A DNA stretch of 43,926 nucleotides from UHGV virus genome UHGV-0164981, one strand, 5' to 3'. This DNA comes from a virus. A program made the position numbers and the translations under genes. Below the pieces are notes generated by a model that did not search any database, had not been told where the DNA came from, and was given only the letters and a program-made list of their open reading frames with translations. Below are positions 10,405-16,503 of this stretch, in pieces. How positions within the stretch are numbered: the first letter of the stretch is position 1; every line of letters begins with the position of its first letter.

Positions 10405-12672
10405 ATGTCCGATGTAATTTTATCCTACTCGTGGTCTCGTCGCAACGCGCGGGCAGAGAAAAAGGATATAAACGTCAGAACCACACACACGGCAACACTG
10501 GACGACCTGAAAGAGTTAATCCAGCCGCTTGATGCTGTCCGTGACGGAATTAACCCGAAGACAGCGCCCGGTTATATCACCGCCGCGTGCGACTCAACGC
10601 ACAGCACCGTAAAAGACCCGGAAACCGGTGACTTTAAGCGAGCGCGTAAAGGCTTCTTCTATCGCTGTGACGCGTCTGTAAGCAAATCATCGCTGGCGTA
10701 TCTGGACTTTGACAGCGCAACGCCGGAAGAGTATCAGGAAGCGGTGCGCCTGGTTAAGCGTAGCCGCCAGGCTATGTGTCTCTACACCACGGCATCCCAT
10801 ACCGATGAGTCACCGCGCTTTCGCGTCGTCATGCCGCTGGGCCGCCCGGTCGAAGGGGGCGACATCATCCGCATACGTCATGGATTGCTGGAGCACTTCT
10901 TCAAAGGCATGGGCGCTGACCGTAGCGGGTTCACTTTGTCTCAGCCCATGTACCTTCCTCCGGTAGGCTCTCAGGTTATCTGGTCGCGCCGTAACGACCT
11001 TATTGACCCGGAAGAGTTACTGGAAGGCATCCCCGCCGTTGACGTTAGCAGCGCATCTGACTACCAGATACCGGAAGAACTGCGCACTGCATTTACTGAT
11101 GCGTTCGAGGCACTGGCGTTCGAATACGGCGGCATCATGACGCCGCGTGGCCTTAAGATGCCCGCCACACCGGAACACGCAGAAAACTACAGCGACCCGA
11201 CCCCGCGCCCGGACGACTTCCTGCTGTGCTTCCCGCGCGAGGGATATGAAGCGCCGAACGTAACGATGATTCACGACACCGACATCACGGCAACCGAAGG
11301 CATGTCGCCGAAAGAGGTGTGGAAGTATGCGTGTGATGCGACCGGACTGCCGTTCAGTGAAGTCGCAGAGGCCATCGGATGGGGCGCGCGTGAAGCCGTC
11401 TCATGCAGCCTGGATGACCTTGAAGACGACGAGGACTCAGAGGAGGACGAGTTACCGGAACCGGTAAAGGCTGATTTCGTCGTTGAGGGGTACATGCCGT
11501 CGGATTGTATCTGGGATATTGTTGGGGAGTCTGGCACGTATAAATCATTCTATACGCTGGGGATGATGTACCTGAGCGCCGCCGGATACCGGTTTGCCGG
11601 GGCAGATACCCAGCGTTGCCACCATTTCTATATCGACGGTGAGGGCGGTGCCACTACACGCACCCGTATTGATGCACTCGCGGCTAAATATGGCGAGGAA
11701 GGTAAAGATTATGTACATGTTATCGATATGGGTGAAGTCGGAAAACTGAAAAGCCTGATTAAGTTAATGCGCGAAACTGCGGGTGATGAACCCATCGGCA
11801 TGGTCGCGTTCGACACCCTTAACCAGACGCTGGCCCTGACGATTGATAAGTTCGACGAGAACAGTTCATCAACGGCAATCGGCATGGGTAAAGTTATCGC
11901 CATCCTGAAAGAAGTACGCGACGCAACTAAAGCCGCGGCAGGCGTTGTACACCATACGCCGAAGGGTGGAAAGAAAGCCCGTGGCAGTGGAGCATTGTAT
12001 GCTGGTGTCGACGTGGAACTGACAATCGAACGTGCTACCGACCGTCAGATAAACGTATACCACTCTAAATTTAAGCACGGGCCTCAACAGAAGACGGTTG
12101 GCATGGTACTGGAGTCGGTACAGTTTCGTGAAGCACCGCCGCCGAAAGAGTACCGCGCGGTTGAGTTCCTCGGTAGCACAGAGGAATACGGCACAATAGT
12201 AAACCTCGACCTGCCTGAGCCGCACAAGGCGCTTGTGCTGATGCCGTGGGGCTTCGAGCCGTTCAAGACTGATGAGGAGAAAGAGCGGGAAGAAGGGTTA
12301 ACTAACGAAGGTAAACAAAATGTACGTAAAACCGTAGAGAACGCCGTCAACAGTTCCGAGTCCACTATACTCGCGGCGTTTGAACTGGCGGAGGGGACCT
12401 ACAACGGCAACGAAGGTATCACGGTATCCGCGGCGAATAAGCTCGCACAGTCTGACCCCAACGCAAAGGCGTTTAACTCCAAAGAAGCCATAGAACGCGG
12501 GAAGATTAAGAAAATGGTTGAGGCTGGGTATCTTGTTCCGGGTACTGACGAAAACAATCAGATAATCCCAGGCCGTTACAGACTTAACACCCGGATAACG
12601 GATAACAAGATTCCGAAGACAATATACGAACCCAATGAGATGCTGACAGTGACAGAGGAGGATTTGGAATGA
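10405..12672 (+). CDS. putative primase-helicase fusion (primase-polymerase-like N-terminus, P-loop helicase C-terminus)
   Basis: 755 aa. N-terminal half has LAYLDFD and SHTDESPRFRVVMPL elements suggestive of archaeo-eukaryotic-type primase motifs; C-terminal half has Walker A GESGTYKS and a RecA-like ATPase pattern. Acidic linker (DDLEDDEDSEEDE) between halves. Confidence 0.65.
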   Translation: MSDVILSYSWSRRNARAEKKDINVRTTHTATLDDLKELIQPLDAVRDGINPKTAPGYITAACDSTHSTVKDPETGDFKRARKGFFYRCDASVSKSSLAYLDFDSATPEEYQEAVRLVKRSRQAMCLYTTASHTDESPRFRVVMPLGRPVEGGDIIRIRHGLLEHFFKGMGADRSGFTLSQPMYLPPVGSQVIWSRRNDLIDPEELLEGIPAVDVSSASDYQIPEELRTAFTDAFEALAFEYGGIMTPRGLKMPATPEHAENYSDPTPRPDDFLLCFPREGYEAPNVTMIHDTDITATEGMSPKEVWKYACDATGLPFSEVAEAIGWGAREAVSCSLDDLEDDEDSEEDELPEPVKADFVVEGYMPSDCIWDIVGESGTYKSFYTLGMMYLSAAGYRFAGADTQRCHHFYIDGEGGATTRTRIDALAAKYGEEGKDYVHVIDMGEVGKLKSLIKLMRETAGDEPIGMVAFDTLNQTLALTIDKFDENSSSTAIGMGKVIAILKEVRDATKAAAGVVHHTPKGGKKARGSGALYAGVDVELTIERATDRQINVYHSKFKHGPQQKTVGMVLESVQFREAPPPKEYRAVEFLGSTEEYGTIVNLDLPEPHKALVLMPWGFEPFKTDEEKEREEGLTNEGKQNVRKTVENAVNSSESTILAAFELAEGTYNGNEGITVSAANKLAQSDPNAKAFNSKEAIERGKIKKMVEAGYLVPGTDENNQIIPGRYRLNTRITDNKIPKTIYEPNEMLTVTEEDLE

Positions 12673-12870: not shown

Positions 12871-12892
12871 AAAGGGGCATTAAGCCCCTTCA
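12871..12892. terminator. bidirectional hairpin GGGGC-ATTAA-GCCCC between convergent genes
   Basis: Inverted repeat flanked by A-run and T-rich sequence, between the 12669-12866 (+) and 12880-13095 (-) genes. Confidence 0.5.
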
Positions 12893-13095
12893 CCTAACGC
12901 CAGCCACTTGGCGTCTACTTCCAGCACTTCCGCCAGTTTAAACAGCGTTGCCGGGCGGACGTCCTGAGTTACACCGAGAGCCAGCTGGTTAATCGCACCC
13001 TGGGAAACGCCAGTCAGGACAGCCAGCCGGCGCTGGGAGATGCCGAGTTCTTTACGGCGTTGCTCTACACGGATTCCTAGTTCAGATGGTTGCAT
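12880..13095 (-). CDS. XRE-family (Cro/CI-type) HTH transcriptional regulator
   Basis: 71 aa; LGISQRRLAVLTGVSQGAINQLALG is a classical Cro/CI HTH; the only minus-strand gene inside the plus-strand replication module, with its own upstream promoter and AAGGAG RBS. Confidence 0.7.
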   Translation of the reverse strand: MQPSELGIRVEQRRKELGISQRRLAVLTGVSQGAINQLALGVTQDVRPATLFKLAEVLEVDAKWLALGEGA

Positions 13096-13126
13096 GTCAA
13101 TTACTCCTTAGTCAGTTGATATGTGA

Positions 13127-13155
13127 ATAGTACCATATTAATTATTTTAGAAAAG
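13127..13155 (-). promoter_or_regulatory. class A-like promoter (TACTATTCA -10 region) for the XRE regulator gene
   Basis: Reverse complement reads ...TTAATATGG TACTATTCA CATATC followed by AAGGAG and ATG; -35 is weak. Confidence 0.45.
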
Positions 13156-13159
13156 CCCA

Positions 13160-13188
13160 TTGACATGTGAATAGTTCGCTATTATAGT
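13160..13188 (+). promoter_or_regulatory. class B promoter (TTGACA-17 nt-TATAGT) with GAATAG-N4-CTATT inverted repeat in the spacer
   Basis: TTGACA tgtgaatagttcgctat TATAGT; divergent from the XRE gene promoter. Confidence 0.6.
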
Positions 13189-13218: not shown

Positions 13219-13380
13219 ATGAAGTTCAGAGTAGACATGCAACCAACAGAAGAAATGTTAAAAGCCGGCATAGACCAACTGATATACTACATCCCTGGCA
13301 TCGAGGATGAAGTCGATGAAGAGCAACTATCAGACGCCGTTTATTTTATCTGGCAAGCAATGATTCAAGCGTCAAAATAA
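13219..13380 (+). CDS. small hypothetical acidic protein
   Basis: 53-aa ORF (not in track) with GAGAGGAGAG RBS 6 nt upstream of ATG; coordinates approximate. Confidence 0.35.
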   Translation: MKFRVDMQPTEEMLKAGIDQLIYYIPGIEDEVDEEQLSDAVYFIWQAMIQASK

Positions 13381-13395
13381 ACAGGAGAACAAATA

Positions 13396-13917
13396 ATGTT
13401 AGAGAAATTCTTAGTATTACTGGAACGTTTCGTAGTTGCACATGAACTGATTGCTGCGAACAGTGTGAAACAACCGACTAATAAATCTGTAGGTGAATTG
13501 ACTGTTGACGTCGCGGTAACTGGGGTGGAGACAGTTAAAAAAGAACTGGCTAAAGCACTTGAAGAAGTCGAGAAGGCGAAAGAACTCCCAGTCGAAGGTG
13601 AAGACCTCGTTGACACTAAACCGGCGGAAGAAGAGAAGCCGAAACGCAAGCCGCGTAAAGCTAAAGTAGAGGAGCAGACGCCAGAACCGGAAGAAGAGAA
13701 GGAAGAAGTCAATTATCAGTCTCTGCGCGACCAGATTCAGGCTATCGACGATGCGATTAACGAAGGTCCGAGTGACACCGCGTGTGATGATTCCGATGAA
13801 CTGCTGGAAGAGTTCACTGGTAAGAAGATGAAGATTGCTGCTATTAAAGACGAAGACCTCGCCGAGTACCTGGAACGCCTGACAGCAATCAAGAACAAGT
13901 ATTTCGAAGAAGAATAA
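13396..13917 (+). CDS. highly acidic, low-complexity protein of unknown function
   Basis: 173 aa with long E/K/P-rich central region (PAEEEKPKRKPRKAKVEEQTPEPEEEKEEV) and acidic C-terminus; AGGAGA RBS. Confidence 0.5.
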   Translation: MLEKFLVLLERFVVAHELIAANSVKQPTNKSVGELTVDVAVTGVETVKKELAKALEEVEKAKELPVEGEDLVDTKPAEEEKPKRKPRKAKVEEQTPEPEEEKEEVNYQSLRDQIQAIDDAINEGPSDTACDDSDELLEEFTGKKMKIAAIKDEDLAEYLERLTAIKNKYFEEE

Positions 13918-13923
13918 TCATCT

Positions 13924-13945
13924 GGCGGCCTTCGGGCCGCTTTAA
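13924..13945 (+). terminator. hairpin GGCGGCC-TTCG-GGCCGCTTT
   Basis: Directly after the stop of the acidic protein gene. Confidence 0.45.
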
Positions 13946-13960
13946 CTGAGGGTCGGAATT

Positions 13961-14239
13961 ATGATTTACCAACTCTACCGCGCCTTTGACAGGCGGGATA
14001 ACACGGAGGCGTTGTGGTTATTGCGTGCGCCGTCCGGTGCACACCAGATGGAAGAGATGGCGTACTTAGGAAAAGTGCCACGGCCTAAAGATATAGGCCG
14101 CCACGTGTCGCAGATTAAGCGCACGACTTTCGCCAAACCTGACTTTTACGTCTTCGAGTCGATGTATGGCTGGGCCATGCATTGCGACCATAAGACAAGA
14201 CATTTAATTGACCAGTGGGAGAACAGGGTATGTTTGTAA
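13961..14239 (+). CDS. hypothetical protein
   Basis: 92-aa ORF after the terminator-like hairpin. Confidence 0.45.
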   Translation: MIYQLYRAFDRRDNTEALWLLRAPSGAHQMEEMAYLGKVPRPKDIGRHVSQIKRTTFAKPDFYVFESMYGWAMHCDHKTRHLIDQWENRVCL

Positions 14240-14366: not shown

Positions 14367-15608
14367 ATGATTCTTAAAGAACGTGGTGGCAATAACGATG
14401 TGCACGCAATACTGTCGCCGTCTGGCGCTAAAAAGTGGTTAAGTTGCGCGGCATCACTGGCATGTGAAAAAGATATTCCTAACACGTCCGGTAAAGACGC
14501 CGTATTAGGCACGGCTATGCACACGATAGCGGAGATGCACCTTAACCAGTACATCAAAGGCACTGCGCTGCCGTTAGAGCGTGAAGTCGGCGCTTACGTG
14601 ATGGATGAGGGTAAAGGTCAGATTAAGGCGCTAATCAGTCCGATGAAAGGCGCGGTGCTTATTACGGCGGACATGATTGAGCAGGTGCGCAAGTACACCG
14701 ACTACTGCAAAGCGATTATCGATGTAGCTACTTACGCCAAACTCGAGATGCGCGTCAATCTTACTGAGGTATTGCACCCCGGTTACGAAGGCGTTGAGAC
14801 ATTCGGAACCGCTGACCTTGTTGCCGTCCAGGAACTGGCGAACATCGACGAGCACATGCTTATCATCGGCGACCTGAAAACTGGACGGCATCGTGTCGAA
14901 GCGAAAGAAAACAAGCAGCTTATGCTATACGCTCTCGGTGTTTATCGCCGACTAAAGAGACGTTATAACATCACAGTTGTTCGTCTGGTCATCTTCCAGC
15001 CGTACGCGGGTGGCGCGTCGGAGTGGGACATCTCGGTCGAAGGTCTGGAACTGTTCGCCAAGTTCGCACAGAAACGCGCACTGTTGGCTCTTGATGCATA
15101 TTTCCGCGGTAAGAAGAACCTGAAAGCGTCTGACTTCAAGCCGTCGGTCGATGGTTGTCAGTGGTGTCGGTTCTCTGAACAATGCGCCGCGCGTACAAAG
15201 ACGGTCAATTCTGTACTGGCGGAAGAACTGGAAGACGACTTTGCACTGGAACTGACGCCAGAGCAACTCGTAGCTGAGTATGAGAAGCTGCCGTTGTTGC
15301 GCCAGCACATCGACAAGGTTGAGAAAGCTATGGTCGCCGCGTTGCATTCTGGTAAGAAAGTGCCGGGGTACAAATTGGTTGAGGGTCGTCCAGGTAATCG
15401 TGCGTGGAAAGATGCCGATGCGGTATTCGAGAAGTACGGTACTATGCTGCAAAAGGTAGTTCTGATGACACCAACCGAAGCGGTTAAAGTAATACCAGAA
15501 GAAGAACTGAAAGACTTCATTACCCGTAAGCCAGGAGCGCCATGCGTCGCAACGGCGGATGACAAGCGTCCTGAGTGGAATCAGGTAACAGAGGAGGATT
15601 TGGAATGA
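14367..15608 (+). CDS. PD-(D/E)xK-family nuclease (Cas4/RecB-like, DUF2800-type) with C-terminal Cys cluster
   Basis: 413 aa; N-terminal ILSPSGAKKWLSC, central DLVAV...IIGDLKTG...EAKENKQLMLYALG resembling a D..(D/E)xK core, and CQWCRFSEQC resembling a Cas4-type Fe-S cysteine cluster. Confidence 0.55.
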   Translation: MILKERGGNNDVHAILSPSGAKKWLSCAASLACEKDIPNTSGKDAVLGTAMHTIAEMHLNQYIKGTALPLEREVGAYVMDEGKGQIKALISPMKGAVLITADMIEQVRKYTDYCKAIIDVATYAKLEMRVNLTEVLHPGYEGVETFGTADLVAVQELANIDEHMLIIGDLKTGRHRVEAKENKQLMLYALGVYRRLKRRYNITVVRLVIFQPYAGGASEWDISVEGLELFAKFAQKRALLALDAYFRGKKNLKASDFKPSVDGCQWCRFSEQCAARTKTVNSVLAEELEDDFALELTPEQLVAEYEKLPLLRQHIDKVEKAMVAALHSGKKVPGYKLVEGRPGNRAWKDADAVFEKYGTMLQKVVLMTPTEAVKVIPEEELKDFITRKPGAPCVATADDKRPEWNQVTEEDLE

Positions 15609-15782: not shown

Positions 15783-15811
15783 TTGACACCTGAATAGCAA
15801 GCTATTATAGT
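15783..15811 (+). promoter_or_regulatory. class B promoter (TTGACA-17 nt-TATAGT) with GAATAG-N4-CTATT inverted repeat
   Basis: TTGACA cctgaatagcaagctat TATAGT upstream of the SSB-like gene. Confidence 0.6.
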
Positions 15812-15870: not shown

Positions 15871-16503
15871 ATGGGTATTAAACTGAATCTGCGTAAAGTA
15901 AACACTGCTTGGGTTAACGTATTCGAACGCGAAAAAGACCGTGAAAACGATGATGGCTCAATCACTAAAGGCCAGTACAGCGCGACTATCATCCTTCCGT
16001 CTGACCATGCTCAAATCGACGCGCTCTACGACACCGTTTACGCTGTAGTTGAAGAAGCGTTAGGTGCAGCCGCCGCCGAGAAGTGGATGAAGTCCAACTA
16101 CGGCGAAGGTAAGCACATGGATAAATGTGCGATTAAAGATATCGCTGAGCGCGACAATCCGTTTGAAGACTTCCCGGAAGGCTTCTACTTCAAAGCGAAG
16201 GCACAAAAACAGCCGCTGATTGTAACCTCTAAAAAAGGTGAGACTCAGGTAGAGCAGGACTTCAACGTAGACGGCGAACAGATTGAAGGTGAACAGGTTT
16301 ACAGCGGCTGCGTAGCTAACGTAAGCGTTGAAATCTGGTTCAGCCAGAAATACAAAGTTCTCGGTGTTAACCTGCTGGCGATTAAATACGTCGGCGAAGG
16401 TAAGGCGTTCGGTGGTTCTAAAGTCGCCGCAAGCGTCGACGACCTGGAAGACGACCTTGAGGATGATGGGCCAGCACCACGCCGCGAACGTCGTCGCCGC
16501 TAA
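15871..16503 (+). CDS. putative single-stranded DNA-binding protein (DUF2815-like)
   Basis: 210 aa with acidic C-terminal tail (DDLEDDLEDDG) as in SSBs; sits between the nuclease and the DNA polymerase, an arrangement seen in phage replication modules. Family assignment is from memory. Confidence 0.5.
   Translation: MGIKLNLRKVNTAWVNVFEREKDRENDDGSITKGQYSATIILPSDHAQIDALYDTVYAVVEEALGAAAAEKWMKSNYGEGKHMDKCAIKDIAERDNPFEDFPEGFYFKAKAQKQPLIVTSKKGETQVEQDFNVDGEQIEGEQVYSGCVANVSVEIWFSQKYKVLGVNLLAIKYVGEGKAFGGSKVAASVDDLEDDLEDDGPAPRRERRRR

Follow-up and report, generated by a model that had tools for sequence, protein, structure and literature searches.

The DNA analyzed here is a stretch of 43,926 nucleotides from the virus genome UHGV-0164981 (the whole stretch is hereafter called the window), and our subject is the gene at positions 13396 to 13917 on its plus strand, which encodes a strongly acidic protein of 173 amino acids (aa). 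The window belongs to the Kagunavirus (K1G-like) lineage. Over 4 kb around the gene, the sequence shares ∼91% identity with Escherichia phage K1G and with many further Kagunavirus genomes, and it matches 451 phage records, nearly all of them for phages of Escherichia or Salmonella. The local gene order (features are on the plus strand unless noted) starts with a helicase-primase gene (10405 to 12672) and a small open reading frame (ORF), followed by a divergent gene on the minus strand for a helix-turn-helix (HTH) repressor (12880 to 13095; HTH_3 match, E value of 2e-12). After the repressor come a promoter, a 53-aa ORF, the 173-aa gene, ORFs of 92 and 51 aa, and the gene for a DUF2800 PD-(D/E)XK exonuclease (DUF2800 match, E value of 3e-67). 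A 67-aa ORF and a second promoter then lead into the genes for a gp2.5/Enc34-type SSB-annealase (an SSB is a protein binding single-stranded DNA; Enc34_ssDNA-bd; phrog_112) and a family A DNA polymerase (PolA).

A preliminary description of the window, made without database searches, had listed the 173-aa ORF, and it is present as claimed, with an ATG start at 13396 and an AGGAG 8 nucleotides (nt) upstream. The product is the orthologue of K1G ORF38 (96% identical), Bas70_0047, and HK578_044, and its residues 1 to 173 of 173 are covered by the profile of phrog_3127 (E value of 8.3e-68), a family of unknown function. It contains 33 Glu (19% of its residues), 21 Lys, 12 Asp, and 8 Pro, and has an isoelectric point (pI) of 4.55 and a net charge of −19; of its residues 62 to 106, 58% are charged. 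Tandem Repeats Finder detected no DNA tandem repeat in the region of the gene that could lie behind this composition bias, and the region matches no Rfam family. Across 61 distinct sequences, the amino acids of the first 25 codons are kept and synonymous sites vary freely, with all four synonyms in use at the Ala15 and Ala20 codons, indicating that the constraint acts on the protein. The gene is a real coding gene that is core, syntenic, and constrained at the protein level.

Searches of Pfam, NCBIfam, PADLOC, PDB sequences, and predicted folds returned no match between the protein and anything characterized. None of the PADLOC defense and antidefense profiles matched at E values up to 1, the fold searches with the C-terminal domain returned only generic helical-bundle matches, and a Foldseek structure search of BFVD recovered family members only. 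The family is thus already catalogued, as hypothetical only, and lacks a detectable relative of known function.

We derived the anatomy of the protein from two family alignments and an AlphaFold2 model built on a 17-sequence alignment, all of which agree on three modules. The first is a near-invariant amphipathic N-terminal helix (residues 1 to 23, MLEKFLVLLERFVVAHELIAANS; 13396 to 13464), modeled as helical from residue 2 to 23 with a predicted local distance difference test (pLDDT) score of ∼80. R11, A15, E17, and A20 are invariant, and the mean pairwise identity of the helix is 0.74, versus 0.20 in the linker that follows. The helix carries five charged residues (plus His16) with a net charge of about −1, and we propose it as a candidate anchoring or oligomerization module. 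The second module, residues 24 to 106 (13465 to 13713), is a variable and largely disordered polyampholyte linker of 57 to 101 aa across the family, with pLDDT scores mostly between 45 and 67. It holds an acidic island, PVEGEDLVDT (residues 65 to 74; 13588 to 13617), that resembles the motif [ST][DE][DE]DL discussed below, and, within these acidic surroundings, a basic block, KPKRKPRKAK (residues 81 to 90; 13636 to 13665), with the family consensus EEKPKxKPR and at least 90% conservation of K85. Among 67 unique family members, 48 have a [DEG][DE]D[LIV] island in their linkers, compared with 3.3 expected from shuffled linkers, and the island takes the form PVEGED[LIV]VDT or EDDL[AD]DE.

The third module is an acidic three-helix-bundle domain (residues 107 to 173; 13714 to 13914), for which AlphaFold2 places helices at residues 107 to 123, 127 to 141, and 152 to 170 with pLDDT scores of 85 to 92. 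R111 is invariant, D127, D134, L136, and D152 are nearly invariant, and the mean pairwise identity is 0.40. The net charge of these last 67 to 68 residues is −11, and it ranges from −7 to −21 across the family (about −0.16 per residue); the domain closes with an aromatic-acidic C terminus, KYFEEE in the protein studied here. The bundle is duplicated in some family members. The pI of every member lies between 4.4 and 4.9, which argues that acidity is a selected property. The preliminary description had called the whole protein low complexity and had suggested structure prediction as a check. The AlphaFold2 model does show the central disorder (pLDDT of <50 at residues 68 to 102), but the label is imprecise for the protein as a whole, two of whose three segments are conserved and folded; likewise, the C-terminal half is acidic as described but is a confidently predicted bundle (residues 107 to 170) rather than a low-complexity stretch.

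The family comprises 484 phage records by tblastn and 2,408 matching database proteins, and it is narrow: among 1.84 billion representatives, clustering at 50% identity leaves just 27 clusters. Orthologues occur throughout the Guernseyvirinae and in Dhillonvirus, where a clear homologue (EC115; HK578_044) occupies the same slot and was missed by tblastn with the Kagunavirus protein. The Foldseek search of BFVD added Cornellvirus St162 and Gp46 of Edwardsiella phage eiAU as relatives. With essentially no exceptions, 71 related IMG/VR loci contain genes for the helicase-primase, repressor, 173-aa family, exonuclease, SSB, and PolA, and the small ORFs vary. The position of the gene is conserved at the head of the exonuclease operon, of which it is almost always the first gene, with the SSB-PolA unit next; Jerseyvirus-type loci have it immediately next to the exonuclease gene.

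The N-terminal helix is more conserved than every replication enzyme of these phages. It keeps 19 to 22 of its 23 residues in clades whose PolA is ∼65%, exonuclease ∼54%, SSB 40 to 50%, and helicase-primase 26% identical to those of the window. It also recurs outside the family: in one distant metagenomic phage (L073; 7001 to 7885), a 294-aa protein with only one database relative begins with a helix identical at 15 of 23 positions and continues into an unrelated Q/P-rich body. This orphan gene lies directly upstream of genes for a DUF2800 exonuclease and an Enc34-type SSB, and the exonuclease and PolA of that phage are 22% and 31% identical, respectively, to those of the window. The occurrence of the helix on a different body with the same neighbors suggests that it behaves as a self-contained anchoring module linked to these genes.

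A short acidic motif links the replication proteins to one another. Among all six-frame ORFs of the window, [ED][ED]DL[ED] occurs in three places only: at the end of the helicase-primase (VTEEDLE; 12649 to 12669), at the end of the exonuclease (VTEEDLE; 15585 to 15605), and in the tail of the SSB (16432 to 16500), which consists of SVDDLEDDLEDD (16432 to 16467), GPAP, and a basic tip, RRERRRR (16480 to 16500). Throughout the related loci, including those of Dhillonvirus, the helicase-primase and exonuclease both end in [ST][DE][DE/G]DL plus 0 to 3 residues, and the [ST][DE][DE]DL tail is kept even on a helicase-primase of a different type (26% identity). The SSB in all of these loci carries [ST]x[DN]DL[EDG]D just after its oligonucleotide-binding (OB) core and then a tail of acidic and basic blocks that ends in arginines. 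Some clades bring the 173-aa family close to this pattern, with a linker island, EEDDLADDE, that approaches the local helicase tail, AEDDDLAD at the very C terminus. In Chivirus BP12C, the primase, exonuclease, SSB, and a positional analogue of the 173-aa protein, gp72, all end in a shared D/E-D/E-V.

Based on these sequences, the shared motif may be a lineage-specific docking code of the replisome, with [ST][DE][DE]DL in the Guernseyvirinae and Dhillonvirus and D/E-D/E-V-COOH in Chivirus. The different shared tail of Chivirus is the pattern expected of a docking code that coevolves within each lineage. Acidic tails have such a function in T7, where the C-terminal tails of gp2.5 and gp4 bind gp5-thioredoxin.

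We also considered whether the VTEEDLE tails are a mere Shine-Dalgarno (SD)/ATGA coupling cassette. The two tails of the window are nearly identical in DNA, and both genes that bear them end in GAGGAGGATTTGGAATGA (12666 to 12672 and 15602 to 15608), where the ATGA overlaps with the start of the small ORF that follows and the SD lies inside the tail codons. This overlap would give translational coupling to the next small ORF, and the one after the exonuclease probably starts at 15605 rather than at the GTG at 15575. Across the relatives, however, 48 and 38 distinct DNA sequences encode the two tails, with varying codons and stop codons and a retained peptide motif, and several Dhillonvirus and Chivirus tails have no adjacent downstream gene; coupling was therefore rejected as the sole explanation.

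Two further features of these proteins are recorded here as side observations. The SSB tails of other clades (L001 to L072) are long alternations of acidic and Arg/Lys blocks, and the RRERRRR tip that follows the acidic run in the window is unusual, as SSB tips are normally acidic. Relatives with exonucleases and SSBs >90% identical to those of the window (among L006, L020, L024, L033, and L050 to L072) have helicase-primases only 27 to 33% identical to that of the window; the helicase-primase gene has evidently been swapped between types, with the acidic DL tail kept.

The promoter upstream of the gene, which the preliminary description had named class B, is real. It is a sigma-70 promoter, TTGACA-17-TATAGT (13160 to 13188; 11 of 12 consensus matches), with an internal palindrome, AATAG-N4-CTATT, and a near-identical copy with the same palindrome precedes the SSB-PolA unit (15783 to 15811). 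This 29-nt pattern of promoter plus palindrome occurs at exactly two places in the window (13160 and 15783), with 0 expected by chance. The divergent HTH repressor probably uses the palindrome as its operator. In addition, the region 13116 to 13145 contains, at 13122, a partial third copy of the TGTGAATAGT half-site, which together with the two promoter palindromes probably makes up the operators of that repressor.

Directly after the stop codon of the 173-aa gene lies a GC-rich hairpin with a UUCG loop, GGCGGCC-TTCG-GGCCGCT, followed by a short T run (13924 to 13943; stem-loop at 13924 to 13941). A hairpin occupies the equivalent place in nearly all clades (about 60 loci), where the structure is kept with at least five different stem sequences, among them GCCCCGG/CCGGGGC, GCCCTGG/CCAGGGC, and GGTGCCCTC/GAGGGCACC. 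A simple terminator scan did not call it. Conservation of structure without conservation of sequence points to a conserved element, probably a leaky terminator or 3′ stabilizer, that sets the output of the gene apart from that of the downstream enzymes.

Taking these observations together, we tentatively interpret the 173-aa protein as a core, stoichiometric accessory subunit (an adaptor or hub) serving the phage's T7-like replication-recombination machinery, with the caveat that its physical contacts and the scaffold role are ones that we infer. The machinery served would consist of the family A polymerase, the gp2.5-like SSB/annealase, the DUF2800 exonuclease, and the helicase-primase. The preliminary description had offered a replisome scaffold as one option beside a DNA mimic (for antirestriction or nuclease inhibition), and the scaffold is the better fit of the two because of the core status of the gene, its fixed synteny, the anchor-linker-domain anatomy, and the docking-like motif in the linker. 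The conserved acidity and the structure-conserved hairpin fit a product needed in stoichiometric amounts, and the N-terminal helix found with the same neighbors in the distant phage L073 also counts toward a role at the replisome, as do the conservation of this helix above that of every replication enzyme and the motif shared by the helicase-primase, exonuclease, and SSB, with its different Chivirus counterpart.

Under this interpretation, the protein would be made from the first repressor-controlled early promoter and, owing to the hairpin after its stop codon, in excess over the downstream enzymes. The N-terminal helix would anchor it, either through contacts between copies of itself or through a single highly conserved partner. 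The linker, with its acidic island and basic KPKRKPR block, and the acidic bundle could then make multivalent contacts, mostly electrostatic in nature, with the same surfaces that recognize the [ST][DE][DE]DL motif of the helicase-primase, exonuclease, and SSB, for which the polymerase and/or the arginine-rich SSB tip are candidate receptors. A more elaborate version has the helix oligomerize and the linker, bundle, and blocky SSB tail nucleate a replication focus or condensate, in which this polyampholyte hub would concentrate the polymerase, helicase-primase, and exonuclease, proteins wired together by the lineage-specific docking code; we regard that version as quite unlikely.

Several observations weigh against a replisome subunit. 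Profile and structure searches gave no homology or specific fold match between the protein and any replisome component, and acidic tails are not likely to be received by a domain that is itself acidic. The conservation of the N-terminal helix, which goes far beyond that of the phage enzymes, could equally indicate a conserved host target. The Kagunavirus island PVEGEDLVDT is similar to [ST][DE][DE]DL and not the same, and 19 of the 67 members lack an island. Homology of Chivirus gp72 to the protein is unsupported (hhalign probability of 0.3%), leaving gp72 a positional analogue only. Finally, the number of basic residues in the SSB tail correlates weakly with the negative charge of the C-terminal domain, in data that are phylogenetically nonindependent, and we made no use of this correlation.

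One alternative is that the protein inhibits or hijacks a host enzyme that processes DNA ends, as do the RecBCD inhibitors lambda Gam, T7 gp5.9, and P22 Abc2. The bundle and linker would then mimic nucleic acid and the N-terminal helix would bind a conserved host protein, so that linear phage DNA is protected and the exonuclease/annealase of the phage itself is favored. An exonuclease-annealase pair does follow shortly after the gene, as one follows gam in lambda; the acidity of the C-terminal domain is conserved (about −0.16 charge per residue), and a helix conserved far beyond the phage enzymes is what an invariant host target would lead one to expect. Moreover, Kagunaviruses and Dhillonviruses are sensitive to P2 Old, and this system has a link to RecBCD inhibition (PMC11990801; preprint 10.64898/2026.07.10.737580). 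This sensitivity is variable among Kagunaviruses, however, even though the gene is core: the efficiency of plating (EOP) of Kagunavirus Bas70 on Old is 1.2 and 0.2 (PMC11990801 S1 Data). Three P2 OLD escapers of Dhillonvirus HK578 have been isolated, with mutations in gp43 (a frameshift), in gp46, and in the gp45 promoter, and none in gp44 (preprint 10.64898/2026.07.10.737580). In the GenBank numbering of HK578, gp46 is the helicase-primase, gp44 is the homologue of the 173-aa protein, and gp43 is the homologue of the 92-aa ORF (13961 to 14239) immediately downstream of it. Because the one OLD escape mutation in this operon falls in gp43, the gene implicated in triggering the RecBCD-linked sentinel is the neighbor, and the 92-aa ORF is a better candidate than the 173-aa protein for the factor sensed by RecBCD-linked defenses. 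With only three escapers, this result weakens rather than eliminates a Gam-like role. Gam, gp5.9, and Abc2 also showed no similarity to the protein in sequence or fold in profile, PDB, and fold searches; a disordered center and a conserved basic KPKRKPR block are not typical of rigid DNA mimics, and antidefense genes are usually variable, whereas this gene is fixed. Considering both sides, an inhibitor of end processing seems a doubtful possibility. The triggers of KpAvs2 (Ksap1) and RAZR lie in other genes, as do the SECphi18 escapers of Retron-Eco8 and Borvo.

The extreme conservation of the N-terminal helix in phages of different Enterobacterales could also reflect a host-takeover or regulatory factor, whose helix would bind a host machine (e.g., RNA polymerase, DnaB, SSB, or the beta clamp) and redirect it or time the switch from early to late expression. 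Such a factor is suggested as well by the fact that, of the core products made from an early promoter under repressor control, the protein is the first, and by the ORF list of the window, from which the phage appears to lack an RNA polymerase of its own. Against this, profile and structure searches detected no similarity to known phage proteins that bind RNA polymerase, clamp, or helicase, and the tight linkage of the gene, in L073 too, is to exonuclease and SSB genes and not to regulatory genes; we consider this explanation unlikely. Far less probable is a DNA mimic of the Ocr/ArdA type that blocks type I or other restriction enzymes, to the point that we give it hardly any weight. The protein is early and acidic, which was the reasoning of the preliminary description in listing antirestriction under its DNA-mimic option, but published plating data contradict it, and neither Pfam nor PDB nor fold searches gave a match to Ocr or ArdA. 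The orthologue in Bas70, Bas70_0047, is 80% identical to the protein studied here, with an identical N-terminal helix and C-terminal domain. Kagunaviruses as a group are highly sensitive to restriction-modification (RM) systems and variably so to P2 Old in the completed BASEL collection (PMC11990801). Bas70, with 5 EcoKI sites, plates on EcoKI at an EOP of 1.3e-5 and 5e-6, on EcoCFT_I at ∼1e-3, and on EcoRI, EcoRV, EcoCFT_II, and EcoP1 at 1e-5 to 1e-6 (PMC11990801 S1 Data). That Bas70 is restricted despite its orthologue effectively excludes an Ocr-like role in natural infection.

The small ORFs around the gene are less constant than the gene itself. The acidic ORF that the preliminary description had placed between the promoter and the gene exists (13219 to 13380; 53 aa, pI of 4.06, net charge of −7) but is a sporadic accessory gene and not a constant neighbor: it is found in 0 of the 71 related IMG/VR loci and in 40 phage records, only 3 of them with >80% identity. 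Most relatives thus have the 173-aa gene as the one immediately behind the promoter. The slot after the promoter is occupied by an unrelated 75-aa ORF in Bas70, by an HNH endonuclease gene in phiEap-2, and by nothing in others, and it is a candidate accessory or antidefense slot. The 92-aa ORF (phrog_4965) is 31% identical to HK578 gp43 (E value of 2e-9); it is present in 49 of the 71 related loci and absent from Jerseyvirus-type loci.

Many records of homologues (e.g., H36, H39, and H44) bear the name “13.88 kDa late protein”; where this name is not used, the gene is annotated as hypothetical. The top BFVD match, a 123-aa fragment from Salmonella phage MB78 (UniProt Q9T1Z8), carries this name and is evidently the source from which it was copied into other records. 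The name is misleading, as it agrees neither with the 19.6-kDa size of the protein nor with its position behind an early promoter. Two other leads were uninformative. The probable orthologue in the K1B4 transcriptome is gene 003, whose temporal class is given in a figure only, and the phage seszw from the CiPGr genome reduction work is a Skatevirus and hence does not bear on this family.

The family is a fixed core gene of several hundred sequenced phages of Salmonella and E. coli (Guernseyvirinae and Dhillonvirus), many of which have been proposed for therapy or biocontrol, and the analysis removes an attractive but wrong annotation, that of an Ocr-like antirestriction factor. More striking than the protein itself is the lineage-specific motif common to the helicase-primase, exonuclease, and SSB, which makes the role of the protein directly testable. 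If the protein is indeed a hub read through this shared acidic motif, these phages would offer a compact and tractable system for studying how short linear motifs organize a viral replisome, and the hub would supply a missing component for the in vitro reconstitution of their polymerases. Laboratory strains of E. coli support plating of Bas70 to Bas76, HK578, and the SECphi phages, with Bas70 to Bas76 needing K-12 whose O16 O-antigen has been restored.

The closest known systems are the T7 replisome, the DNA mimics Ocr and ArdA, the RecBCD inhibitors or modulators Gam, gp5.9, and Abc2, the C-terminal domain of lambda Red-beta, and phi29 p16.7. With T7, the locus shares a family A polymerase, a gp2.5-like SSB/annealase, a fused helicase-primase, and a phage exonuclease, as well as short acidic motifs common to several replisome proteins, to which the linker of the 173-aa protein adds a similar island. 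Unlike in T7, the motif is [ST][DE][DE]DL and not an acidic run ending in Phe, the exonuclease carries it too, the SSB ends in a basic RRERRRR tip, and there is a 173-aa protein that has no counterpart in T7. The proposed mechanism would therefore be a variant of replisome assembly mediated by acidic motifs, with an extra dedicated component that T7 lacks. T7 Ocr (gp0.3) and ArdA are likewise early and strongly acidic, with a similar charge density, but they have no sequence or fold similarity to the protein, whose predicted form is a helix, then a disordered linker that includes a basic block, and then a small three-helix bundle, rather than a rigid elongated dimer, and phages with an orthologue are subject to full restriction by systems of types I, II, and III.

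Lambda Gam, T7 gp5.9, and P22 Abc2 are also small helical or acidic proteins encoded beside a phage exonuclease/annealase module; they differ in that no homology or fold match connects them to the protein, that OLD escape implicates the adjacent gp43, and that the gene is a fixed core gene and not an accessory one. The C-terminal domain of lambda Red-beta, a three-helix bundle that binds lambda Exo and the tail of the host SSB, is counted among the closest known systems. Phi29 p16.7 is an early organizer of phage DNA replication composed of an N-terminal anchoring helix, a linker, and a small helical C-terminal domain. By analogy, the 173-aa protein may resemble p16.7 in overall architecture and in its place among early replication genes. 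The two differ in that the anchor of p16.7 is a true transmembrane segment and its C-terminal domain binds DNA, whereas the N-terminal helix studied here is charged and the C-terminal domain strongly acidic, so that neither membrane insertion nor DNA binding is expected of the 173-aa protein.

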